From IMG/VR virus record IMGVR_UViG_3300030098_004510: a stretch of DNA of 20,000 nucleotides; one strand, written 5' to 3'. Under the pieces are notes generated by a model. That model was given only the letters and a program-made list of their open reading frames with translations, had not been told where the DNA came from and ran no database searches. Positions 3,746 to 19,999 of the stretch are shown here, one piece after another. Origin of the DNA: an uncultured virus (IMG/VR IMGVR_UViG_3300030098_004510) (taxonomy: Duplodnaviria; Heunggongvirae; Uroviricota; Caudoviricetes). Each line of letters opens with the position of its first letter. Positions within the stretch are counted from its first letter, which is position 1. A program made the translations under genes and the position numbers.

Positions 3746-4871
3746 AAAGACCCTCGCATTCATCCGCAAATTCTTCATCAAATGTTTCACCAAATAAATT
3801 ACCTTGTGCTTTTGGTTCCAAGAAGTTTATTTCTCCAAGTGGTTTAGCTGATTTATGTAGATATAATTTAGCTTCTGAATTTTTTAATCCATTTCTAATT
3901 AAGTTATCTACTTCCACCGCATCGGCAAAATCTTCTGGATAATTTTTCTGCATGTTTTTCCATTGATCATTGTGATGATAAGGACAACCTATACATGATG
4001 ACTTACCAGGCATAGGATGTTTCTTTATGTCACGGTACCATTGTAAACAATCCATACGTGACATCTTCATTTCTATTAAAGGCCAACGTGATGTCAACCA
4101 TGGTAGCCTAGCATTTTTCATACGCATGGCTTCATCTGTAGATATACCTATCCATTGTTCTACAATTACATCTTTAGGTACTCTATGTCTTGGCTTTACA
4201 CCAAGTAATTCTCTAATCTTTTTTTGTATAGGGATAACTTTATAATCATGTGTACACTGACGATATAGCATCCCTACACGTCCACCTTCACGTGCAGCAA
4301 ACAACGGTGGGTTTGGTACACGTCCAGCAAACGACTTTTCCTCTTCTTTTGACCCTGGTTCTGGGTTCGCTGCTTTGATAAGATCCTCACGGATACTACT
4401 TCTCTCCACAGTTATAAGCGGACAAATCGTTATTGCTTTTCTTAAATATTCTACATGCTCATACACAAACTTAGGCTCCCATCCCGTATCAGCAAATATC
4501 ATATAATCTGGTTTATGTTTTGTTAATCCTTCTTGTGCCATCAATGCTAAACATGATGATTGCACACCTGCGCCTAATGATAATATACGCATAGTAGGTT
4601 CACGTTGCTCGCCTTTACCTTCTGTGCTGTCGTATTCTGCGCGGTTACCATTTTTAAGTAAATTCGTTGTTTTAAAATATTTAGGTTCTACGGTAGCTGC
4701 AACTGCAGCCATGTTATTTAATTTCTTTTGATCAACTTTAGTGGACATTTGTTCAAGAACTTTTCTTCTTTCAAATTCCATTTGTTCTGCATTAATTGCA
4801 AAATTACTTTTAACATTACCAGCTCTGGCTTTGCCTTGTTCTCGGTACCCGGGTTTTTTAGTCTCTGTCAT
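3735..4871 (-). CDS. PAPS-reductase/DndC-like adenine nucleotide alpha-hydrolase-fold protein, Cys-rich
   Basis: Variant PP-loop ILSLGAGVQSS, IFADTGWEP, RQCTHDYK, WIGISTDE..R, KSSCIGCPYH and C-terminal ECEGLCGV. About 93 aa N-terminal extension. Confidence 0.82.
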   Translation of the reverse strand: MTETKKPGYREQGKARAGNVKSNFAINAEQMEFERRKVLEQMSTKVDQKKLNNMAAVAATVEPKYFKTTNLLKNGNRAEYDSTEGKGEQREPTMRILSLGAGVQSSCLALMAQEGLTKHKPDYMIFADTGWEPKFVYEHVEYLRKAITICPLITVERSSIREDLIKAANPEPGSKEEEKSFAGRVPNPPLFAAREGGRVGMLYRQCTHDYKVIPIQKKIRELLGVKPRHRVPKDVIVEQWIGISTDEAMRMKNARLPWLTSRWPLIEMKMSRMDCLQWYRDIKKHPMPGKSSCIGCPYHHNDQWKNMQKNYPEDFADAVEVDNLIRNGLKNSEAKLYLHKSAKPLGEINFLEPKAQGNLFGETFDEEFADECEGLCGV

Positions 4872-5379
4872 AGGCCTCTAGTTCTCTAATTGTTCTGATG
4901 ATTTTTTGCGTATAATATACGTCTTCAGCATATATTGCAAGTGTCATTACTAACTTTTCTAAATCAATTTCATCGCTAAAATGCTGGTTAATTCGCTCCT
5001 CTCTAAACTCATTATAATGATGATTCTTATTTAGTAACTCCATATAGTAAGATATGGATTCGCACTTTGTCTCAAAGATCCTAAGCCCCCACGTCGCATT
5101 AGGATTACTTAGCGGCTTTAGTTGATCATCTGTTGAGTCAAACGTGCGGATTCCGAGGAGGTTATTACCCTCACGAGCAAATCTAGATTTACCCCAATTT
5201 GATTCATGCACAGCTTGTGCAATTATTAAATTAACTGGAACCCTTTCTTCTTCTGAATGCATAGAATTAAGATGTAACGCACACGCACGCACCTGTTCTA
5301 TAAATTCATCATTGGTTTTATAATCCATTACTGGATTAAAGGATAAACAAACTAAAAGTGTCTTACAAATCCAGTTCAT
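4858..5379 (-). CDS. Glucosaminidase-family (GH73, FlgJ/Bax-like) peptidoglycan hydrolase
   Basis: IIAQAVHESNWGKS...NNLLGIR catalytic Glu motif and YAED..Y motif. Confidence 0.88.
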   Translation of the reverse strand: MNWICKTLLVCLSFNPVMDYKTNDEFIEQVRACALHLNSMHSEEERVPVNLIIAQAVHESNWGKSRFAREGNNLLGIRTFDSTDDQLKPLSNPNATWGLRIFETKCESISYYMELLNKNHHYNEFREERINQHFSDEIDLEKLVMTLAIYAEDVYYTQKIIRTIRELEAYDRD

Positions 5380-5528
5380 TCTTCCTCCTCTTCTTTTGGT
5401 CTATAAACATCTACATGACATTTACATTTAGGACACGATAAATTAGTGACCATGCCATAAGTTTCGTCGTCTTCTATGTCGTGATCTGCACCCCATATTA
5501 ATTCTGTTTGACAATGCCAACAATTCAT
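5376..5528 (-). CDS. 50-aa Zn-ribbon protein (not in ORF track)
   Basis: MNCWHCQTELIWGADHDIEDDETYGMVTNLSCPKCKCHVDVYRPKEEEEE, with ATGA overlaps at both ends (polymerase stop and glucosaminidase start). Confidence 0.85.
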   Translation of the reverse strand: MNCWHCQTELIWGADHDIEDDETYGMVTNLSCPKCKCHVDVYRPKEEEEE

Positions 5529-7369
5529 CCGCCCCAACTATCTCCTAAATCAACATCTACTTTTGATGGAACCTCTAATTTAACACAAGTCTCCATGACT
5601 TCTTTTATTTCATTAGCTTGTTTTTCATTTTGTACTGAACAATCTAATTCATCATGCACTTGAATCAAAGGAATCACTCCTAAGTTTTCGTACACTTCAA
5701 CCATGGCTTTCTTTGTCTGGTCAGCAGCTGATCCTTGAATCAATCTATTAAGAGCCTTGTAGGTGCCATATCTTTTTATAGCTTCCCCATATTCTACCTT
5801 CGCTTGATTCAATGGTAATGGTTTATGAACACCCCATTGTGTTGGTTCCCATAAATCAAATCTACATTTACGTCCAAGTAAAGTACGAATAACTCCTTTA
5901 GAATTAGCCCTATTCATAACTGCCTCCAACATGCCTTGCATAAATGGTACACGCGCACGGAAGTCATTAAGCATAGTCTTAGCTTCCGATGGCTCTAAAT
6001 CTAGCTCACGAGCTAGTTTATTATATCCCATTCCATACATTACACCAAGTCCAATAGTCTTCGCAAGACGTCTCTCACAACCCGCCATATCGGCCGTTTG
6101 TTGGTGAAAGTCGAGGTCTTTTTTATGATATGCTTCCTGTACTTCCCTAGCACCGGGCTGTTTGACGAGGCAGGCCCAATGAGTAAGTAGCCTTGGTTCT
6201 TGTTGCGAGTAATCTGCTTTGAGCCAATATTGACCCATCTCAGGAATGAATAACTTCCTAACATCTTTCGCAAACTGGCCACGGCTGGGGACCTGCTGTA
6301 AGTTAGGGTGATTATAAGAAAAACGGCCAGACACAGTCCCACCAGTATCAGACCTAATTTGATTAATGTGAGCATGTATTCTACCCTCCTCTGAATAGTT
6401 CATCAAACCCTGCAAGAATGTACCTCTTAACTTATTTAATTCACGTGCTTGCATGATTAATCTTGGCAGTTCATGTGGATGATCTGTCAAAAACATTTTA
6501 GTAAATGATGGCGCATCTGTCTTAGCTGTTCTTTCGTATGGTAAACTTAACGCATCAAAAGCTTTTGCAATTGAAGCTGCTGCCCATATCTCTATGTCCA
6601 AACCAGTTAAATGTTTAATGCGCTGCATTAATTTCTTTTCTTTATTATGAAACTTATCGTTTAACTGAATACATTTATATGTATCAAACCTAACACCACG
6701 ACGTGTCATATGGAATATAACATTAATTAATTTACATTCTACATCGTACACTGTTGTAAGATTGTCTTTAACAATCTCCCACGATAACTTCTCGTGTAAC
6801 TTGTAAGTTAAATCTGCATCTGCTTCCGCATACTCACCAACAAACTCTGCTGGTAATTTATACATTTCTGATTTTGGATTTACACCAAATGCATCAGCGG
6901 CTTCTTTAAGCTTTTGCTCATTCTTAAACTCTCCTAGATATTCATGAACAATACTATTGAGTGTATATGAATATCTATTCTCATCTATTAACGCAGCAGC
7001 TACCATCGTATCATGTATTCTACCTTTAACTTCTATACCAAGTGTCCATAACCAACCTATATCATACTGCGCATTGTGAAATACTTTTTCAATTGAATCA
7101 TCATGACAAATTGATTTTATATATTTTACAACTTTCTTTTCATCCATGTTGCCACCACCCTCATGTCCTATAGGATAATAAGCTTTAAAAGAAGCAGTCG
7201 CTACGGCAATGCCAATAACTTTTCCTTTTTTAGTTGGCCACCCTGGGCCGTGTTTCACGAGCTCTGGATCACATGTCTCCAAGTCAATCGCTACACGTCC
7301 CTCTATATGTGGAAACTCCGTGGGTGCTACCCATTGTGAAGTCACTGATTTAAAAAGATCCTGTGTCAT
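5525..7369 (-). CDS. polA: Family A DNA polymerase with 3'-5' exonuclease domain
   Basis: ExoI DLET, ExoII HNAQYD, ExoIII YAEAD; motif A DYSQQEPR, motif B RRLAKTIGLGVMYG, motif C QVHDEL. AGGAGA RBS. Confidence 0.97.
   Translation of the reverse strand: MTQDLFKSVTSQWVAPTEFPHIEGRVAIDLETCDPELVKHGPGWPTKKGKVIGIAVATASFKAYYPIGHEGGGNMDEKKVVKYIKSICHDDSIEKVFHNAQYDIGWLWTLGIEVKGRIHDTMVAAALIDENRYSYTLNSIVHEYLGEFKNEQKLKEAADAFGVNPKSEMYKLPAEFVGEYAEADADLTYKLHEKLSWEIVKDNLTTVYDVECKLINVIFHMTRRGVRFDTYKCIQLNDKFHNKEKKLMQRIKHLTGLDIEIWAAASIAKAFDALSLPYERTAKTDAPSFTKMFLTDHPHELPRLIMQARELNKLRGTFLQGLMNYSEEGRIHAHINQIRSDTGGTVSGRFSYNHPNLQQVPSRGQFAKDVRKLFIPEMGQYWLKADYSQQEPRLLTHWACLVKQPGAREVQEAYHKKDLDFHQQTADMAGCERRLAKTIGLGVMYGMGYNKLARELDLEPSEAKTMLNDFRARVPFMQGMLEAVMNRANSKGVIRTLLGRKCRFDLWEPTQWGVHKPLPLNQAKVEYGEAIKRYGTYKALNRLIQGSAADQTKKAMVEVYENLGVIPLIQVHDELDCSVQNEKQANEIKEVMETCVKLEVPSKVDVDLGDSWGG
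6040..6375 (-). CDS. Candidate overprinted gene in the +1 frame of polA: 111-aa protein with N-terminal TM helix and basic C-terminus
   Basis: AGGAGG SD (6385-6390) 9 nt before the ATG, local GC rise, and polA synonymous codons that avoid +1-frame stops across this interval. Confidence 0.55.
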   Translation of the reverse strand: MLTLIKLGLILVGLCLAVFLIITLTYSRSPAVASLRKMLGSYSFLRWVNIGSKQITRNKNQGYLLIGPASSNSPVLGKYRKHIIKKTSTFTNKRPIWRVVRDVLRRLLDLV

Positions 7370-7649
7370 TAATTTCTCCTGCTATTGCTGCATAACCACA
7401 CATATCAATGAAGTTATCCAAGTTGTTTTTCTTACCTTGAGTGTTTCTTGATATCTTCATCAGAACCATCATCAATGCCACATCTTCAGCTGTAATACTA
7501 GCCATTGGTTGTAGCTTTTTATCAAGATATATATTCCAAAATTCTGCAATTTCTGCATGGTTTTGAAATGCATCCCCATGTGTTTCGTTCCTATCACCAG
7601 TGACAAGATCTCTAGCTTTCTTTAATATTTCTTCTTTAGTCATGCTCAT
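7350..7649 (-). CDS. DUF6378-like small all-alpha phage protein
   Basis: Pattern A..LV.GDR...HGD...N...IA..W..YL...DVA.MM..MK.SR...DN..D..GYAA. ATGA overlap with the helicase. Confidence 0.75.
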   Translation of the reverse strand: MSMTKEEILKKARDLVTGDRNETHGDAFQNHAEIAEFWNIYLDKKLQPMASITAEDVALMMVLMKISRNTQGKKNNLDNFIDMCGYAAIAGEINDTGSF

Positions 7650-9151
7650 ATTATGAACCCTCCTTCTCTCTGTGGTTGTACTATATGTAGTTGGTTACGA
7701 GCGCGTGTAGCCCCTACATAAAATACACGGCATTCATCATCTGAATCTTTTTCCATTGCTTCTTGTGACTTTCTTGATAAGTCTGTAAGCAACATTACAT
7801 TGTCTGCTTCTCCTCCTTTTGCCCCATGAATAGTACTAAGATTAATCTTAGGATTGGTTGATACCTGCCCTCTTATTTCTATGGCGCGTAAATATTCTTT
7901 ATCTCTATTTCCTACTTTATCAAAAGCTACATCCCATGGTCTACCTCCCATCAGTAATCCATGATGCATAACTAACTCTTCTAATTCATATTGTTCTTTG
8001 TCAGCCATCTTAAGATTTTTATGACCTCTTTCAATTCCTATCTGACTAGACATATATGAATATATATCTTTTACATCTGGTAATGCTACATGCTCACCAT
8101 TATTTAATTTCTTCCAAGCTTCTACAGCATTTAAAAGTTTACTAGATATAGGTAATTTATTATTTCTTTTATACAACATGCCTTGTAATCTAATGTCACG
8201 CTCTATTTCATCAAGCATATAATTTGTTCTAGCCATGACTAGCCAACTACCTGGATCTCTTAAATTAACTCCTTCTGGATAATTGTGATAAACAGCTAAG
8301 CCACTATTCTCTGTTCCATACCAACTCTTTGCCCTTCTAAATTTAACTCTATTAATTATTCTGTGTGATAAGTTTTGTATAACTTTAGAACAACGATAAG
8401 ATTGTTTAAGTGTTTCTATCTCACCTGGTAACTTAATAAAGTGTCTAACATCAGCTCCTGCCCAAGTATATATAGCTTGATCATCATCGCCACATACATA
8501 AACCTTTTTAGCATTTTGAGAAATCTTATCTACCATACGCCATTGTAATGCGCATAGATCTTGAGCTTCATCTATGAATACTACGTCTAGTTTAGGAACT
8601 GGACCAGACTCCAAATACAATTCAATCATGTCTGTAAAATCAAATACTTCTTTTTTCTTTTTAAATTCTTCTAGTGATCGTTGAGCTCTAAGTAATGCAT
8701 GCCATGAAACATCTTGTAAATTAGAATGATTATAATGGTGCTCTAATTCCATACACTTCATACGTGCTAAATTAACCTCATTTATCAATATGTTATCCGT
8801 CGTAAATATACCCCCGGAATCATTACCATCTGTCACAGATCCTAGATCCATGCCAAATGTTTGTGCAAACTCTTTATAATTATCACGCGACATAACTTCA
8901 GCTTTGGTTAAACCTAATTGATGAAACGCAAATGAATGTAGTGTTCTAAAATATGGTAAGTGTTGCTCTTCTAAATCAAACTTCTTCATTGCCCGGTCAC
9001 GCGCCTCGGTTGCAGCTTTCTTAGTAAAGGCTAGAAAAGCAATACGATCGGGTGGTGTGCCACGTGCCAATTCTTCTTCCACACGGTTCAATAGTGTATG
9101 TGTTTTTCCCGTACCAGGAGGACCTAATATAATTTTAGTTTTAGTTTCCAT
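7646..9151 (-). CDS. UvrD/Rep-like superfamily 1 DNA helicase
   Basis: GPPGTGKT, AFTKKA, RTLHS, DEAQD, GDDDQAIY, QSYR, STIHGAKGGE and FYVGATRA motifs. Confidence 0.95.
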   Translation of the reverse strand: METKTKIILGPPGTGKTHTLLNRVEEELARGTPPDRIAFLAFTKKAATEARDRAMKKFDLEEQHLPYFRTLHSFAFHQLGLTKAEVMSRDNYKEFAQTFGMDLGSVTDGNDSGGIFTTDNILINEVNLARMKCMELEHHYNHSNLQDVSWHALLRAQRSLEEFKKKKEVFDFTDMIELYLESGPVPKLDVVFIDEAQDLCALQWRMVDKISQNAKKVYVCGDDDQAIYTWAGADVRHFIKLPGEIETLKQSYRCSKVIQNLSHRIINRVKFRRAKSWYGTENSGLAVYHNYPEGVNLRDPGSWLVMARTNYMLDEIERDIRLQGMLYKRNNKLPISSKLLNAVEAWKKLNNGEHVALPDVKDIYSYMSSQIGIERGHKNLKMADKEQYELEELVMHHGLLMGGRPWDVAFDKVGNRDKEYLRAIEIRGQVSTNPKINLSTIHGAKGGEADNVMLLTDLSRKSQEAMEKDSDDECRVFYVGATRARNQLHIVQPQREGGFII

Positions 9152-9557
9152 TTCTAATCCTTTTCTCTTCTAGTCTATGACAATTAGCACATAATACTAT
9201 GCACTTCTTCCATTCTTCTTTCATCTTTTCAAATTGTTTTAAACTTGTTCTCCAGTATCTAGATACATTTAAAAATTTATCTGCTCTATTTAAATGGTGA
9301 AAATCTAAAACAACAGGGTCATCCTTATATCCACAATGAGCGCACCCTTGTTTTAATTTTTCATCATTCATAGATTTACTAATAAAATCATAAATTCTTT
9401 TTTTATTTCTTTTATTGTTTTGTATTTGTTTTTCAAATCCCTCTGGGCTTCTCCAATCCTCCCCATATGTTCCATCTTTTTTTAATCTATTTAATCGTCT
9501 ACCAATATATCGGTATCCATCCTCTCTCGTATCACCAAATTTAAAACGGGGCACCAT
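9141..9557 (-). CDS. HNH endonuclease (Zn-binding, McrA-like)
   Basis: CAHC...LDFHH...KCIVLCANCHR. AGGAGG RBS; the start could be 9560, 9557 or 9554. Confidence 0.85.
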   Translation of the reverse strand: MVPRFKFGDTREDGYRYIGRRLNRLKKDGTYGEDWRSPEGFEKQIQNNKRNKKRIYDFISKSMNDEKLKQGCAHCGYKDDPVVLDFHHLNRADKFLNVSRYWRTSLKQFEKMKEEWKKCIVLCANCHRLEEKRIRNGN

Positions 9558-11031
9558 CAACCTCCTTTATGTCAAACGCTGAATCTTGTTGCTGATATGC
9601 AGGCACACCCCACACTCTCACTGTTCTACCTTTAAGATTATATTTCTCACTCTTACCTTTTAAATGTCTTAATGCTTGTACTAACTGACCTGTGTTAAAG
9701 TAAGTAAATTTATTTCTTGTAAGATAATCTTGTAAGTCTTTTAATCTAAACCAGGTAATCCCATCTTCTGTCCATGGTTTACGTAATAATAATTCGTCGC
9801 GATTTAGGGCTTGGGCACGATCAGTACAAAACTCCTGGAGGTGAGCCTCAAACTGACCGGCCAATGACCCATCATCAGAAACAGGAATAGTATTAAGATT
9901 AACCATTAATCTCTCTATGTTTTCCTGCCACACTGACTGTTTTACTAGAGGTGGCATGTGATTCAAACTGTTCATACATTTCTTTTGAAACTTAGTTTGT
10001 ATCTGTAGCTCCTCTGTCTGTAATTCCATTCGTGCATCACCAACATCCAAGAACCAAACTGGTGGATCTGTTTCTAATTTTGTTAATGCACTAAACTCTA
10101 ATGATGCTCCATTACCACCTATACCATGCTTTCTTCCTCTACATACTTTAGCATTACAATAAGAACTAATTGGTGGTTCTTTACATCTATAACTATATTC
10201 TTTTTTCTCTAATTGTTTTTGAACTGTCACAACCTCTGATGCTGATAGAGGAGGTGTCATATAATCCTGGTTGTATTTTTCTAGTAATGTTTTCCAATTG
10301 TCTGGATCAAACTTACGTAGGTATACACCTATGTTAAACAAACCATTATTACGTGTGCCTTCTGGAAATCCTTGTGAGCATAATTGTTGTAAACAAGGTG
10401 GACCATCCTTTATGACTTCATCAGATACTTGGATTGCAACTTTGTCTATATCTTCTACAACGTATTTATCGTATAAGGTGTAGAACTCTGGCAATGACGC
10501 CGCTGTTCCATCATCTTTATAGGCATATCTCGTTGTACTTTTGGAATTATAATATGGAAGATTTAGGAAATTACCTAGATCTCCTTTTTCTATTAATATG
10601 GTTGATTGCTTGGGGAATACTTCTACAGAGGAATATCCGAGACCAGATGCAACCTCTCGTAATTTCTCTCGTACTAATCTGGCGGATACTGGGTTTTTAA
10701 GAAATAAAAATATATGCATCCCACCACTCTTAGATCTACATGGAACTAAGGGTAATTGTAAATTTCTAATTGTATTTATTATTTTTTTGTAATCAATTGG
10801 ATATGTATCAATATCAATACAGCCCCAACGAACTGTATTATCTGCCATAATAGGAATGATCCCTAATGAAGGACCATTACCATTAAGGTGTTCTAACCAT
10901 AATTCATCTTTAACTTCTTGCTTGACAATATAGGATTTACCCTCTTGCTTACCGTCAGCACGTTTCCCTTGGGATTGGTGCTGACCATAAGCTACGTCTA
11001 AGCCTTCAAATATAGATTTGAATCTTTCCAC
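9541..11031 (-). CDS. Archaeo-eukaryotic-type primase (prim-pol) with PriCT-like domain
   Basis: GCIDID (DxD), SKSGGMH, GNFLNLPY, PPCL..L...G..EGTRNNGLF and a Cys cluster. GTG start after GGAGG. Confidence 0.85.
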   Translation of the reverse strand: MERFKSIFEGLDVAYGQHQSQGKRADGKQEGKSYIVKQEVKDELWLEHLNGNGPSLGIIPIMADNTVRWGCIDIDTYPIDYKKIINTIRNLQLPLVPCRSKSGGMHIFLFLKNPVSARLVREKLREVASGLGYSSVEVFPKQSTILIEKGDLGNFLNLPYYNSKSTTRYAYKDDGTAASLPEFYTLYDKYVVEDIDKVAIQVSDEVIKDGPPCLQQLCSQGFPEGTRNNGLFNIGVYLRKFDPDNWKTLLEKYNQDYMTPPLSASEVVTVQKQLEKKEYSYRCKEPPISSYCNAKVCRGRKHGIGGNGASLEFSALTKLETDPPVWFLDVGDARMELQTEELQIQTKFQKKCMNSLNHMPPLVKQSVWQENIERLMVNLNTIPVSDDGSLAGQFEAHLQEFCTDRAQALNRDELLLRKPWTEDGITWFRLKDLQDYLTRNKFTYFNTGQLVQALRHLKGKSEKYNLKGRTVRVWGVPAYQQQDSAFDIKEVDGAPF

Positions 11032-15365: not shown

Positions 15366-15875
15366 TTATAAAAGTTCTAATGCTAATTTAGTTGTTTCAT
15401 CAACTCTTCTGGTCCATCCTTTTCCAAAGGTACCAAAAGTAGAAAGACTTTCATAATATTCTTGTCTGGCTGCTTGATATTGTTTTATACTTTCTTCTAA
15501 ACCATGACTATCTACATGCTCATTTACTTTAGCCAAGGTCATAGGTCCAATGCCACCGTCTACTGTAGTGCCAATCATTTTCTGTAAAAATTTAGCACCG
15601 CGTCCTGGTCCTGCATTAACTCCAAAATCAAATACACATAAATCTAAACCAGAAGGTAAATCATCACCTTTCATTTTATCCCAATAACCTTTTTTATAAA
15701 TTGGTGCTACGTCTTCGACTGTTAAATCTTTCATGTCTTTTGTACCACCGTGTTCTTCATATACTCTTTTAGTAACACCAAGATTTGTTTCTCCACCTGG
15801 GTCCTCGGGGTGGTTAACATAACCACCTTCATGATGTAAAATTGTTTTTAAGCAGTGTTCATAATTATGTTTCAT
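15366..15875 (-). CDS. Endolysin, glycoside hydrolase family 108 with C-terminal peptidoglycan-binding domain
   Basis: HEGGYVNHPEDPGGETNLGVT, FDFGVNAG, DGGIGPMT and FGKGWTRR motifs. Confidence 0.95.
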   Translation of the reverse strand: MKHNYEHCLKTILHHEGGYVNHPEDPGGETNLGVTKRVYEEHGGTKDMKDLTVEDVAPIYKKGYWDKMKGDDLPSGLDLCVFDFGVNAGPGRGAKFLQKMIGTTVDGGIGPMTLAKVNEHVDSHGLEESIKQYQAARQEYYESLSTFGTFGKGWTRRVDETTKLALELL

Positions 15876-16078
15876 TATCTATCCAATTTTTTATTTATAT
15901 TTTTTACTTCGTTTTCTATGACCGCTATTCTAGCTTCCATTTTTGTAAATAAAATTAAAGCTTCTTCTATACGATCTATGTCTCGTTCCATAGCATTAAT
16001 ACGTTGCGATGTCATACCCCATGTAGCTCCAAGTGCTATAAAAATTCCTATAATCCAAATAGCATCTCTTACACTCAT
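15875..16078 (-). CDS. Small single-TM coiled-coil protein, holin-like candidate
   Basis: TM AIWIIGIFIALGATWG followed by a coiled coil. TAATG-coupled to the endolysin. Confidence 0.6.
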   Translation of the reverse strand: MSVRDAIWIIGIFIALGATWGMTSQRINAMERDIDRIEEALILFTKMEARIAVIENEVKNINKKLDR

Positions 16079-16079
16079 A

Positions 16080-19000
16080 TTAACTTACCAAAGATATTAT
16101 GCCACCTCTTGCTGCAGTAGGCATTTGAGTGGTTGGGCCTGTAGGAGTACCAAATTGATTCGCTAGTGCTGCATCCGTGTTTCCACTATATAAACTAGCT
16201 GCCGCATTAGGATTCATACTTTGATTAAGAGCAATAGATGAGCCTGTAGTGCCACCTCCGAACGTATTTCCAGAAGTAGCACCGACAGACGTTGGGCTAG
16301 AAGATGCAACTGAAATATCTTCAGTTACATCAGTTACCGCAGGAGTGTTTGCAGACTCCTCACGGATTCCTTGTTTGGCTTGCGCCGCTTGTTTCATTTT
16401 TTCAAAGATGTTTATCTTTTCAGATATTTCTTCTCTACCAGTAGGGTCTGGTTGTTTATAAGCATTTACTTGATCAGTTCTACGTTGTTGATTTAATACA
16501 TCTTGAGTTTGTAATTCAAGTTCTTCTAAATCACCATTAAAGTTTGCACCAATAGTTTGTAATGCATTTTTAACAGCAAGTGCTTTAGCTGCTGAACCAT
16601 ATTTATGATAAGTAAAAGGATTCCATATTCTTGCAATATCTTCATCTGTTGCTTTTAAAATTTGATTAGCTGCTTTTAAATTAATTGGATTAGTTAATAT
16701 TTTACCACCTTGTCTTGCAAGTAAAGAAAACATAACAGCGTGTACCATGCTTACAGCCGGTATTGCAGCTCCAGCAGTTGCAGATCCTCCAATAGTTCTA
16801 CCTGGTAAGAAAGATCTAATAGCTCCTTGAAGACCAGAAATTTGTGCTCTTCTTGCTATGAATGTACTAATATCAGGCACACCACCACGGAAACCTGCTT
16901 CTAAAACTGTTGCAAAATCTGTTAAATCTTTCGCTGTTACAAAACCAGTTTTAACTTGTTTTGCTCTTCCGTTTAAAATTTGAATTGTTTTTGCATCCGC
17001 TCCGGCATCAATTAAATCATCCGGTAAAGATTTCATCCAAGGTTGAAGGTTATCTTTTCCTATACCTTTTTGTGCTATATTTAATCCTTCATCAATAGTA
17101 GCAAATAACTTTCCGTTCTTATCATCAAGACCTAAATTTTCTATAAATTTTTTAGGATCAATTTGTTTAGCAGCAGCAACACCTTCTTGGTTTAATGCTT
17201 TTGTAGCAGCAAGTGGTGAATTTAAATCTAAAAATGATTTTCCTGGCCATGCTTTTAATGCACTATCATATGCTGATTCAATATGCCTTCTCATCATACC
17301 TCTAAAAATGTCATCACCTACAAGAACTTGTAAATGTTTCATAGATTGAGGTGATTCTAAAAGTTTAGCTGTATGTAATAAATCATCAGCATACTTAGAA
17401 CCTTGTTGTCCAAGTTTAACTTGATAACCATATAACATATTTTCTGATAAACCTAATTGCTTTGCAACTGGAGAACCAAGAAGCATTTGTCCTTGTGACC
17501 AAAGATCATCATAACGTTTTAATGCTGATTTACCTGCCTCACCTAAATCAACTTGTCGCATTGCATTTTGAATTGATTGAGAAAATTGTTCAGCAAAATT
17601 AATAGCAGTGGCGTTAGTTTTCATGCCACCCATTTTCATTATTTGTCCAAGTTCATCTAACATTGCATCTGCACGGGCTAATGTAACTGAACCAGGTTCT
17701 TGTAATATATTATCAAAAAATGTGTTTAATCTATTTTTAACTACTGTTGGAAGAGGTGTACCATCTAAACCTTTTCCTGTTACTTGGGCCATGTGTGCTT
17801 TAAAATCTGTAATGATTGCGTGTGGAGAACCATCACCAATATTACCAGCAAGCTTTACATTAGCTCCTCTAGAAATTGCATGATCAAACCATTCTTTTCT
17901 TAATTTAGTTAACTCTTTAGTAAGATTGCTTACAGTGACTTTAGAAGAAGCACTAACGGCTTCAGATAATCTGTTATAACTAACTGATGGAGCAATACGA
18001 TTAGTCATGTCATCTAAAATAACATTCATTTTTTCTGCACGTTGAGCAAGGTTCTTTGCTCCTCCTCCACCAATTAAAGGAAATCTTAAAAATACATTTG
18101 GAAAACCTTGAACAGATCTATATTTACTTACGTCGGTAATACCTAATATTGCATCTGGTTCACCAGTTTGTTTTATCCAACCAGTTTTACCACCATATTG
18201 TCCTTCAGGAATAAATTTTTCAGATAACTGCATACCTTTAGTAGTTAATGTTTGATCACCAGCTCCTAATAAACTTCTCGTAAAGTTTCTAGTCAAATTA
18301 ATAGAAGGTGCTATAAAAGCGCCCATCGCTGTTAACTTTACTTCTTGTTCAGCTGTATCTACTAAACCTCTTGCTCTTTCTGCTACACCAGGTCTGTTAA
18401 TTCCTTTCTTACCAAACACACCTGCTTGGTTAGCTACGTCAAGTGCTGTTTCATATCCATAGTCTGCTGTTAATACACCAACAATACCACCAGCAAGTGC
18501 GCCTGCCATTCTTCCCCAATAAGGACCACCTTTCCAAAACTTAAATCCACCTTGAACACCTTTACCAAAAGCTGTTGCACCTTTACCTAACATGGAAGGT
18601 TGAGCAATTGCCCAGTTCTTTGACATATTATATCCAAGAATATTACCTCCAATACCACCACCAAATTTCATTATATTTTCAGCTTCAGGAAAAGGGTTAG
18701 GTGAACTTGTAGTTAATCCATAAGGGTCTGGCATTAAATTTACATCAACATCTCCACCACCTTGAATTTCTTGTGCAGTGTATCCATTTTGTCTTGCGTA
18801 AGCTAGTAGCCTTGCTTCCAATTCATTTTGATTAACACTACCAGGATTTTCATTTTCTTTCTTTTGCGCTTGTGCAATTACTTGAGCAATTTCCGCTCTA
18901 ACTGTTTCAACAGGTCGTCTATTTGCTAAGGCTTTCTCGTATTGAATTTGTAATTCTTCATCTGCTTTAACTTTATCAAGTAAAGCTTTTGCTTCAGCAG

Positions 19001-19316
19001 CTCTTTGTTTTTTTATATGCTCAGGAACACCGCGTGGTCCATATTGATAAATATCATAAACTGTTTCTGCACCGCCTTTAACTGCATCCCAAAAACCACC
19101 TAGTATAGCGTCTTTTGCATCACCACTTTTTTTTCTTATACGATCTATTCTTGCTTCAGCATCAGTAATAGGAACAGTTTTTCTAAAGTCTACATATTCA
19201 GTATCTTTAGCACCAATAACTTTTTCTTTTCCTACATCTCCCATTAACAATTCAGAGATACCATCGGAAGATAAAGGGTTTATAACGTTTAAACCTTTTT
19301 TAATTAAGTCAGCCAT
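16080..19316 (-). CDS. Large probable internal virion/ejection protein
   Basis: 1078-aa Ala/Gly-rich helical ORF with Gly-rich hydrophobic segments and a low-complexity C-terminus, upstream of lysis genes. The function is an inference. Confidence 0.7.
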   Translation of the reverse strand: MADLIKKGLNVINPLSSDGISELLMGDVGKEKVIGAKDTEYVDFRKTVPITDAEARIDRIRKKSGDAKDAILGGFWDAVKGGAETVYDIYQYGPRGVPEHIKKQRAAEAKALLDKVKADEELQIQYEKALANRRPVETVRAEIAQVIAQAQKKENENPGSVNQNELEARLLAYARQNGYTAQEIQGGGDVDVNLMPDPYGLTTSSPNPFPEAENIMKFGGGIGGNILGYNMSKNWAIAQPSMLGKGATAFGKGVQGGFKFWKGGPYWGRMAGALAGGIVGVLTADYGYETALDVANQAGVFGKKGINRPGVAERARGLVDTAEQEVKLTAMGAFIAPSINLTRNFTRSLLGAGDQTLTTKGMQLSEKFIPEGQYGGKTGWIKQTGEPDAILGITDVSKYRSVQGFPNVFLRFPLIGGGGAKNLAQRAEKMNVILDDMTNRIAPSVSYNRLSEAVSASSKVTVSNLTKELTKLRKEWFDHAISRGANVKLAGNIGDGSPHAIITDFKAHMAQVTGKGLDGTPLPTVVKNRLNTFFDNILQEPGSVTLARADAMLDELGQIMKMGGMKTNATAINFAEQFSQSIQNAMRQVDLGEAGKSALKRYDDLWSQGQMLLGSPVAKQLGLSENMLYGYQVKLGQQGSKYADDLLHTAKLLESPQSMKHLQVLVGDDIFRGMMRRHIESAYDSALKAWPGKSFLDLNSPLAATKALNQEGVAAAKQIDPKKFIENLGLDDKNGKLFATIDEGLNIAQKGIGKDNLQPWMKSLPDDLIDAGADAKTIQILNGRAKQVKTGFVTAKDLTDFATVLEAGFRGGVPDISTFIARRAQISGLQGAIRSFLPGRTIGGSATAGAAIPAVSMVHAVMFSLLARQGGKILTNPINLKAANQILKATDEDIARIWNPFTYHKYGSAAKALAVKNALQTIGANFNGDLEELELQTQDVLNQQRRTDQVNAYKQPDPTGREEISEKINIFEKMKQAAQAKQGIREESANTPAVTDVTEDISVASSSPTSVGATSGNTFGGGTTGSSIALNQSMNPNAAASLYSGNTDAALANQFGTPTGPTTQMPTAARGGIISLVS

Positions 19317-19999
19317 TATTTATATAGCTCCAATAATTCACCAAAATCTGTAGGACCTGTAATATTTACTTCATTTGTTCCAGAATAAATACTATTATTT
19401 CCAGTTGAAATTGTTTGATTTTCATCTGGGAATTGTCCTAAAAATCCTAAATTAATTCCTTGGTCTATTGCTTCTGGACCTACAAAACTTAAATAAGATT
19501 CATTATACCCTTGAATTGTAAGTGGTTGATTTAATCTACCAACACCAAATTGTGTTTCAGGTTTCATACCAGCTCTCATTGCGTGTGTAGCATAAGCATT
19601 GTATAGACGTTTTACAAACATATGCATTTTATTTGCATACTGTCTTGGATCACCTGAAGTTAACATTCTATCTTTTTTCAAATTATTAATTGAAGTTTGA
19701 ATTGTATCTGCAAGTAGACGACCAGTAGGCTGTTTCAAACGTGCTTCTAAGAATCCCATCATGTTAATCATTTGTTCTTCTATGTCATAGAATTGATTAT
19801 CCATTAAGTTTCTTACATATTGTTCAGTAGCAAAATTACCTTCTCTAATATTTCCACTTCCATCATCATACTTACCAAATTGAACATCTTTTTGACCACC
19901 ATGTGCCTCAGTTGCAATGTTACCTTCACCGGCAAGTAAACCCATTTGTGAGTTAACTAAGCCTTGCATTGTGTCTTCTGTTTGTGATCTCATCATTCC
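19316..19999 (-). CDS. Probable virion protein, 5'-truncated by the window edge
   Basis: The frame stays open to the end of the window. TAATG coupling with the 1078-aa gene. Confidence 0.75.
   Translation of the reverse strand, partial: GMMRSQTEDTMQGLVNSQMGLLAGEGNIATEAHGGQKDVQFGKYDDGSGNIREGNFATEQYVRNLMDNQFYDIEEQMINMMGFLEARLKQPTGRLLADTIQTSINNLKKDRMLTSGDPRQYANKMHMFVKRLYNAYATHAMRAGMKPETQFGVGRLNQPLTIQGYNESYLSFVGPEAIDQGINLGFLGQFPDENQTISTGNNSIYSGTNEVNITGPTDFGELLELYK

Follow-up and report, generated by a model that had tools for sequence, protein, structure and literature searches.

The stretch analysed here, 20,000 nucleotides (nt) of IMG/VR record IMGVR_UViG_3300030098_004510 (an uncultured virus of the Caudoviricetes; hereafter the window), belongs to the replication module of an uncultured tailed phage of marine origin. 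On the minus strand, this module encodes a primase, an HNH endonuclease, a helicase, a DUF6378 protein, a family-A DNA polymerase, a glucosaminidase and a PAPS-reductase-like protein. The polymerase gene, polA, contains a second open reading frame (ORF) on the same strand, in the +1 frame, spanning polymerase codons 332–443. It starts before DYSQQEPR, presumably motif A by its consensus, and ends in RRLAKTIGLGVMYGMG, presumably motif B. This ORF is in all probability a real, evolutionarily young overprinted gene for a small membrane protein. The features on which the argument depends are the following.

5525..7369, minus strand: the family-A DNA polymerase gene (polA), host frame of the overlap; 614 amino acids, matching PHROG 17 'DNA polymerase' with E 4e-108.
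6385..6390, minus strand: the Shine-Dalgarno (SD) sequence AGGAGG, 9 nt 5' of the ORF ATG.
6373..6375, minus strand: the ATG start of the ORF, built from polymerase His-CAT and Ala-GCN codons.
6040..6375, minus strand: the overprinted +1-frame ORF (P0001) of 111 codons, from the ATG (6375-6373) to a TAA stop.
6298..6372, minus strand: a predicted N-terminal transmembrane (TM) helix, ORF residues 2–26, from AlphaFold2 (AF2) and hydropathy.
6184..6186, minus strand: ORF codon 63 (the ATG counted as 0), the stop site of a short form of the ORF.
6096..6147, minus strand: a 52-nt tract of frozen polymerase-synonymous sites, polA codons ~401–423 and ORF residues ~76–93.

The original prediction, made from this DNA alone, rested on start signals, codon choice, base composition and product character. 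The AGGAGG described 9 nt before the ATG is indeed found at 6390-6385. Among the six other copies of this hexamer on the same strand of the window, four lie directly before annotated starts, and the copy before the gene at 7350–7649 has a spacing of 9 nt, identical to that of the ORF. The accompanying statement that the hexamer is written with Glu-GAG in a GAA-preferring genome holds for the 24 window ORFs taken together (338 GAA vs 144 GAG), but polA alone uses the two codons almost equally (25 vs 22). The reported avoidance of NTA codons before a purine, a stop-forming combination in the +1 frame, is fully reproduced: such codons occupy 0/11 of the Leu, Ile and Val positions followed by a purine inside the ORF and 37/79 of those outside. 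Before a pyrimidine, NTA is used at 4/7 positions inside and 15/30 outside, and three NTA codons followed by G stand directly beyond the ORF stop, also as described. The background density of +1 stops is ~0.1 per codon.

The +1 frame is open for 119 codons at the ORF, and the next longest +1 stretch of polA has 34. An ATG-initiated ORF of 111 codons or more arose in a fraction of 0.0004 of synonymous codon shuffles of the whole gene (n=5000), in agreement with the prediction. Shuffles confined to the region, with local codon usage and GC content retained (n=5000), left the frame open in a fraction of 0.003 for the window, and in fractions of 0.002 and 0.011–0.019 for five further lineages. A search for an internal promoter returned 8 promoter-like sites where 8.1 are expected by chance; one of them (6406-6378) overlaps the spacer between SD and ATG and is not meaningful. 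Two marine RNA-library runs contained ~10% of the sampled words, and their contigs cover the polymerase gene in part; one of them, of 175 nt, lies over 6301–6454.

To follow the ORF across relatives, IMG/VR was scanned for the polymerase. The scan yielded 186 stretches encoding a relative, of which the best 80 were retained; these share 82–100% amino-acid and 75–100% nucleotide identity with the polymerase of the window. A second scan, seeded with the most distant clade (L064), returned the identical 80 contigs. After exclusion of four partial genes (L070, L071, L079 and L080), 77 sequences including the window remained, 67 of them distinct. The polymerase frame is intact in all of them (the window and 76 complete relatives), and the overprinted frame occurs in three forms.

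Long form, 40 of 77 sequences: +1 frame open for at least 109 codons; ORF of 109–120 codons.
Short form, 34 of 77 sequences: TAA or TGA at codon 63, usually with more stops at codons 78, 87 and 103; ORF of 63–68 codons.
Broken form, 3 of 77 sequences (L049–L051): stops at codons 3 and 14.

The frame is thus open for at least 63 codons in 74 of the 77 sequences. An ATG stands at the position equivalent to 6373..6375 in 73 of them, and the four that have ACG instead have an in-frame ATG upstream. The combination of this start with a GGAGG 4–17 nt upstream is present in every long-form sequence (40/40), in 15/34 short forms and in 0/3 broken ones, so that the start signals follow the integrity of the ORF. 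The ribosome-binding motif is spelled in two ways: in the clade of the window GGAGG derives from two Glu-GAG codons, and in the clade L054–L068 together with L019 it derives from Gly-GGG and Arg-AGG, AGG being a rare Arg codon in the window (20/292). The position of the ORF in the most constrained part of the polymerase had been proposed to protect it from loss. The relatives contradict this, as 34/77 stop at codon 63 and 3/77 at codons 3 and 14, and in none of these is the polymerase frame interrupted.

Individual polymerase codons show how the open frame is kept. At polA codon 338, 57 distinct sequences have ATT before A and 10 have ATA before C. At codon 346, 41 have GTG before T and 20 have GTC or GTT before A; the combination of GTG with a following A does not occur. 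Codons 370 and 383 are never of a stop-forming kind (NTA, or NTG before A) in any sequence. Where a pyrimidine follows, most sites have TTA, GTA or CTA. The polymerase Leu at ORF codon 63 is CTT or CTC in the long forms and TTA or TTG before A in the short forms. In the broken sequence L049, NTA precedes a purine at 8/14 sites.

A tree built from the polymerase without the ORF region requires 8 switches between long and short forms, at least 6 of them forced by well-supported branches. Either the region recombines, therefore, or the gene has been lost repeatedly. The sequences point to a mosaic polymerase gene with a recombination breakpoint near ORF codon 63. Between L018 and the window, 8/60 synonymous codons differ in ORF codons 1–63, and 16/22 and 8/16 differ just downstream. 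All 34 short forms are open up to codon 63, and their helix is still selected in most lineages tested; 19/34 are without the GGAGG, and 4/34 have no ATG at the conserved position but an upstream one. We consider it about an even choice whether the short form is a working minimal TM protein or an early pseudogene.

The persistence of the open frame was compared with neutral inheritance. The window and L064 both have at least 109 open codons, and their synonymous codons differ at 220/393 sites outside the ORF, 27/51 in ORF codons 1–63 and 9/20 in the flanks of the tract. Silent sites are near saturation between two sequences whose frames are both open, and openness is therefore not mere inheritance. 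Synonymous turnover was also simulated on the flank tree, starting from the already open window sequence and using codon frequencies from outside the region, at rates that bracket the observed diversity (mu 2.4 and 3.2 match it). At the matched rates, 0/400 runs reached the observed 74/77 sequences open to codon 63 or 40/77 open to codon 109, and 0/400 reached the observed 71/77 with a hydrophobic N-terminus. At mu 1.5, well below the observed rate, the fraction was 0–0.0025.

The 12-kDa product contains 9 Lys, 10 Arg, 2 Asp and no Glu, in keeping with the K/R-rich tail with two acidic residues and the TM helix of the original prediction; its isoelectric point is 11.5 and its hydrophobic stretch covers residues 7–26. 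An AF2 model from a 25-sequence alignment has a confident helix at residues 2–28 (block predicted local distance difference test score, pLDDT, 75–85), followed by a second helix (30–51), a disordered linker and low-confidence helices at 77–88 and 95–110. The maximal 19-residue hydropathy within the first 30 residues is 2.3–3.3 in most open forms, and a null that keeps the polymerase protein sequence and the codon usage of the gene predicts 0.6–1.6 (standard deviation ~0.63). The corresponding P values are 0.0007 for the window, 0.0003 for L054, L060 and L018, 0.001 for L064, 0.0007 for L032 and 0/3000 for L042. The signal is weaker in L013 (P 0.14) and L078 (0.08), and absent in L049 (0.60), L051 (0.14) and L052 (0.68). 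A similar picture is given by four-fold degenerate polymerase codons. Those ending in A number 0/12 in the helix segment of the window against 79/189 outside, and 0–3 of 9–12 in open forms against ~40% outside; L049, L051 and L052 have 3–5 of 10–11. Since A-ending codons of this kind would place polar residues in the +1 frame, their avoidance fits selection for hydrophobicity.

The model and these profiles suggest that the product is likely a small protein that crosses the inner membrane once, by a single hydrophobic helix preceded by a very short N-terminus and followed by a strongly basic tail. One Lys precedes the hydrophobic segment and four Lys or Arg residues occur in the 24 residues that follow. 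By the positive-inside rule, this distribution of charge predicts an N-out, C-in topology in which the tail would be cytoplasmic.

The strongest constraint on silent sites is confined to the 52-nt tract, which lies within the ORF motif VLGKYRKHIIKKTSTFTNK (residues 75–93), which hardly varies among 25 distinct long-form products. Across the 32 different long-form sequences, polymerase-synonymous diversity in the tract is 0.03–0.07, compared with 0.42 outside the ORF, where the lowest 15-codon window has 0.32. In short-form sequences the tract has ~0.20 and the outside 0.36. The polymerase residues of the tract (e.g. DLDFHQQTA) are spelled with different codons in short and broken sequences. 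Only 3/22 of the possible polymerase-silent variant states are seen in the tract, against 81/130 in ORF codons 2–76. Variants that change the polymerase and are silent in the ORF occur there at the usual rate (2/26 vs 15/152 elsewhere), among them His to Tyr or Asn at one site. The numbers are small, and their direction fits selection at the level of the ORF protein rather than of the nucleotides. Variable residues 2–76 and an invariant tail motif would fit a membrane anchor and linker carrying one functional motif.

Base composition leaves a related trace. The GC contrast that had been counted by hand is exact, at 143/300 (47.7%) over 6061–6360 and 34/120 (28.3%) over 6601–6720. By first, second and third codon position (GC1/GC2/GC3), the window has 0.60/0.40/0.40 in the ORF region and 0.50/0.34/0.27 outside. 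In three cultured outgroups that have no such ORF, GC1 and GC2 rise similarly, but GC3 by only 0.02–0.04. Over the 77 sequences, the mean GC3 excess is +0.10 in long, +0.06 in short and +0.04 in broken forms. Because the GC3 excess scales with ORF integrity and is not shared by outgroups without the ORF, this part of the signal is a footprint of the second frame. As far as composition can tell, the patch is partly polymerase amino-acid content and partly this footprint, and not a foreign tract. The original prediction had itself named a recombinant tract from a higher-GC phage as the finding that would speak against it, and this scenario is not borne out by outgroups that share the rise in GC1 and GC2 and not that in GC3. 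In the broken sequences, codon choice, GC3, hydrophobicity and SD are all at background, indicating that the signals relax where the frame is broken.

Three other explanations were weighed against an overprinted gene. An ORF opened by chance in a compositionally odd, GC-richer polymerase core, whether through amino-acid content or a recombinant tract, and then passively inherited, would account for the raised GC1 and GC2, which occur here even in phages without the ORF; moreover, Leu and Ile are typically abundant in the +1 frames of AT-rich genes, and the ORF was found by scanning very many windows. Such an origin nevertheless leaves the frame open in only 0.003 of shuffles that preserve the codon set of the region, fails to transmit it from an open ancestor in 400/400 simulations, and does not sit with synonymous sites saturated between long-form clades. 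Nor does it predict a GC3 excess that tracks ORF integrity, and blastn against phage records found no GC-rich donor (3 matches, all at or below ~70% identity). We regard this explanation as largely refuted here and very improbable.

The other two explanations are built on the tract. It could be a non-coding element with the ORF as its by-product: a structured RNA, a site for protein binding or packaging, or a homing-endonuclease target or immunity site surrounded by gene conversion. Its 52 nt, where the synonymous freeze is strongest, are the size of a cis-element, the region recombines (at least 6 long/short switches on the flank tree), and an HNH endonuclease gene lies in the same module. 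However, no Rfam family matches at threshold, and up to E 1 the one weak match (6591–6666, E 0.76) is on the opposite strand and outside the ORF; the fold of the tract is ordinary (z = -0.99, with 29/200 shuffles folding as well), and the tract is single-copy in the window, without repeats. Recent conversion tracts are disfavoured by adjoining flanks that have diverged like the rest of the gene, and a nucleotide-level element should not tolerate the ORF-silent, polymerase-changing variants found inside it. It would also leave unexplained the avoidance of stops over 109 codons, the re-created SD, the ATG and a selected helix 200 nt upstream, and we judge it very unlikely. The tract contains A AAA AAG in the ORF frame, presumably a slippery heptamer of the dnaX type, with AGGAAG 8 nt upstream, and could therefore join the polymerase N-terminus to a +1 tail, yielding a truncated polymerase comparable to dnaX gamma, or give a TM-anchored polymerase C-terminus by a -1 slip from the ORF frame. 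Yet the A-run is the least conserved part of the tract, the heptamer being destroyed in five distinct long-form sequences (including L054, L055, L056 and L063) in which the rest is fixed, and stable downstream structure was not found (z -0.99). A shift from polymerase to ORF needs no SD, ATG, open first 85 codons or helix, all of which are under selection. A frameshift fusion is therefore scarcely credible, and a programmed frameshift cassette of the dnaX type was rejected because its slippery run is not conserved.

Several observations weigh against the overprinted gene as we read it. The ORF came from a very large scan, so that P values from single sequences overstate their significance. All relatives are metagenome-assembled contigs, and the RNA-library contigs show related polymerase sequence only, not starts, strand or translation. 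The neutral simulation holds the polymerase protein fixed and ignores recombination, which is clearly present. The reduction in synonymous variation foreseen by the original prediction is confined to the tract in long forms; over the whole ORF it is mild (0.365 vs 0.419), and ORF residues 2–76 are nearly free to vary, with most of their possible polymerase-silent variant states observed. The AF2 model is weak overall (mean pLDDT 58.6), and the product has no family, homologue or fold match in PHROGs, Pfam, NCBIfam, a PDB sequence profile or the ESM Atlas; the only NCBIfam matches have E 0.01–0.04, in 1–2 of 25 members. Finally, the ORF is shortened or broken in 37/77 sequences, and with the GGAGG missing from more than half of the short forms (19/34), many copies may be decaying pseudogenes.

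Taking both sides together, comparison of the related sequences demonstrates selection on the second frame: it keeps the frame open and acts on the start signals, on the hydrophobic segment and on one motif of the tail. The conserved start signals, the frame kept open despite saturating synonymous change and the frozen sites uphold the proposal of an overprinted same-strand +1 gene for a membrane protein, as does the codon-shuffling null; translation, membrane insertion, topology and function of the product are inferences.

The gene appears to be young. The nearest named phages are the Pelagibacter phages HTVC023P and HTVC027P, phage 023Pt_psg01 and phage DSL-LC04, with 44–52% polymerase identity (best 51.6%). 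The ORF is absent in HTVC023P, HTVC027P and 023Pt_psg01 (46–51% identity), which have many stops in the homologous +1 frame and whose longest +1 stretch anywhere in the polymerase gene is 31–42 codons. No relatives at intermediate distance that could date its origin were found among phage records, the best being at 51.6%. In a homologue search, 2/11 candidates matched the product, and no free-standing homologue was found. These two are the only matching database proteins, and both were called on contig fragments (671 and 1014 nt) in which the polymerase frame is cut. A species-genome scan gave one irrelevant 50-residue match and no clue to the host. Stops in the outgroups and the lack of any homologue or family match indicate a gene confined to this uncultured clade, which most likely arose de novo. 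Long forms occur on both sides of the midpoint root and have the tract in common, while its flanks have diverged like the rest of the gene. The long form was therefore probably the ancestral state of the sampled clade, from which short and broken forms would derive.

The surroundings of the polymerase gene include other genes that bear on lysis and on the replication module, all on the minus strand.

9141-9560, minus strand (window coordinates): the HNH endonuclease gene of the replication module.
4858-5379, minus strand: a glucosaminidase (PF01832) with a hydrophobic N-terminus, just 3' of the polymerase.
15366-15875, minus strand: an endolysin with GH108 and PG_binding_3 domains, from the Pfam/PHROG family search.
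15875-16078, minus strand: a 67-amino-acid protein in which an N-terminal TM segment is combined with a charged tail resembling a coiled coil; its gene lies immediately upstream of that for the GH108 endolysin.

The glucosaminidase is a second muralytic gene of the window, in addition to the GH108 endolysin. The hydrophobic N-terminus of the glucosaminidase could be a signal or signal-anchor sequence. The gene starts 661 nt downstream of the +1 ORF stop, which makes it the lysin gene nearest to the ORF. The 67-amino-acid protein is probably a holin or a spanin-like partner of the endolysin; its sole match is a weak one to a holin PHROG (E 6e-4). The glucosaminidase is absent directly after the polymerase at six loci (L026, L069 and L072–L075), all with the short ORF form. 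The association between ORF form and glucosaminidase loss is not significant, as the six loci represent only 2 lineages.

In the window, the 145-nt gap between the polymerase stop and the glucosaminidase start is filled by a 53-amino-acid ORF with two CxxC pairs, zinc-ribbon-like (5376-5537, minus strand). The only one of the 80 relatives in which the glucosaminidase is offset likewise is L001, which is identical to the window; in the others it mostly starts at the polymerase stop, and in some ~400 nt downstream. From this arrangement, the small ORF looks like a recent insertion. The helicase gene has an internal AGGAGG ~12 nt 5' of an ATG (window 7817, minus strand). A 1078-amino-acid protein (16080-19316, minus strand) and a 226-amino-acid protein (19316-19996, minus strand) have no PHROG or Pfam matches.

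A working model of the gene can be outlined. Ribosomes would initiate inside the polymerase mRNA at the strong SD and ATG and read the +1 frame for 109–120 codons, or for 63–68 in the short allele. The product would insert into the inner membrane through the helix at residues ~2–26, leaving its basic tail in the cytoplasm. As the gene lies on the replication-module transcript, the protein would be made during DNA replication and act at the inner membrane. Frequent natural shortening and loss mark the gene as accessory rather than essential. With a GH108 endolysin, a small TM protein and a glucosaminidase in the window, the phage does not appear to depend on a single-gene lysis protein.

Our best guess is a helper directed at the envelope, which might serve in superinfection exclusion, in the control of lysis timing or in inhibition of a host membrane process. 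The assignments that follow are judgements and not measurements. Superinfection exclusion, or another modulation of the host envelope, is a tentative assignment with somewhat less than an even chance of being right. A lysis-related role, holin-, antiholin- or Sgl-like, seems unlikely. It is rather improbable that the product is an amurin-like 'protein antibiotic', born de novo and blocking a step of host envelope or cell-wall synthesis as phiX174 E and Sgl proteins do, with populations holding intact, TM-only and dead forms. By analogy with phi29 p16.7, the basic tail might tether replicating DNA to the membrane, a role that we consider quite improbable.

Comparison at population scale shows here that overprinting can produce a selected gene in the motif A-to-B core of the family-A DNA polymerase of a large double-stranded (ds) DNA phage, and is not limited to tiny single-stranded (ss) DNA and RNA genomes. 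The long, short and dead alleles form a natural experiment in which one could follow how a de novo gene is born and decays, and how far a second frame constrains an essential enzyme. Gene callers forbid long same-strand overlaps, which makes such genes invisible in phage annotation. If the amurin-like reading were true, tailed phages would possess, in the overprinting of large conserved genes, a general source of host-targeting effectors that has been overlooked. Any action of the product on the host envelope would make it a new small effector without homologues. There is also a practical consequence, as polA is a common marine-virus marker and the frozen tract and raised GC3 could be misread in analyses of its codon usage or synonymous rates.

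Gene E of phiX174 is overprinted in the +1 frame of gene D; it is the sole lysis gene of this 5.4-kb ssDNA phage, is essential for release and acts through inhibition of MraY. Amurins, the class to which E and the Sgl proteins belong, cause lysis by blocking a step in the supply of peptidoglycan precursors, at MraY, MurA or MurJ. The parallel with E drawn in the original prediction holds for layout: in each case a +1 gene on the same strand starts inside its host gene, and the product combines a TM helix at the N-terminus with a basic C-terminal part, probably oriented N-out/C-in. It does not extend to sequence, where there is no similarity and no Pfam or PHROG match, including to the microvirus lysis family. 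Unlike E, the ORF is dispensable in nature, as its 37/77 shortened or broken copies indicate, and lysis genes are already present in the window. The possibility of a sole lysis gene in a phage without a holin–endolysin pair was rejected, because the window encodes the GH108 endolysin, the 67-amino-acid TM protein and the glucosaminidase. Compared with holins, the product has a TM segment and a basic tail, both predicted, no match to any holin PHROG or Pfam family, and its nearest lysin gene 661 nt from the ORF stop.

Embedded genes are also found in tailed phages, such as lambda Rz1 inside Rz and T7 18.7 inside 18.5; Rz1-type products are outer-membrane lipoproteins with a lipobox, coupled to the host gene. 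The ORF resembles them in that a tailed dsDNA phage carries it entirely within another gene, in the +1 frame, and in that its product is predicted to be targeted to the envelope. In contrast to Rz1, the product has no lipobox Cys following a signal sequence, and the gene that hosts the ORF encodes a polymerase, for which no role in the envelope is known. Small early membrane proteins such as T4 Imm, Sp and RI and phi29 p16.7 act in exclusion, lysis inhibition and tethering of replicating DNA, p16.7 being a DNA-binding protein. They are like the product in size (~60–130 amino acids), in their N-terminal TM anchor, in their expression with early or replication genes and in their accessory functions, and the basic tail of the product could bind DNA as p16.7 does. 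Their genes, unlike this one, are free-standing, and no sequence or fold similarity to them was found.

The closest likeness described so far is to the single-gene lysis (sgl) genes of ssRNA phages. According to passages of Chamakura et al. 2020 (PMC7693330), 21/33 functional sgl genes are fully embedded in rep in the +1 frame, with lysM remnants in a relative, and few sgl genes lie in the conserved Rep core. As far as these passages describe them, Sgl proteins share with the product a small TM protein encoded wholly inside a polymerase gene in the +1 frame, de novo origin, lack of homologues and remnants in some relatives. The differences are that the host is here a tailed dsDNA phage (its relatives are ~60 kb) and not a 4-kb RNA phage, and that the host gene is a family-A DNA polymerase whose catalytic motifs A to B are covered by the overlap. 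Genes for a GH108 endolysin, a small TM protein next to it and a glucosaminidase are, moreover, already present in the window. In a search of the literature on overprinting, overlapping genes and phage DNA polymerase, none of the papers listed describes, in its title or the opening of its abstract, a gene overprinted in a DNA polymerase of a phage. The main-text passages on overlap, holin, lysis, DNA polymerase and GC content in the HTVC023P-type genome paper (PMC9599517) describe no such gene; ORFs in those genomes were called with Prodigal, according to the same passages. Overprinted small membrane proteins as such are known. What is new here is one placed in the DNA polymerase core of a tailed dsDNA phage, together with an allelic series of its forms.

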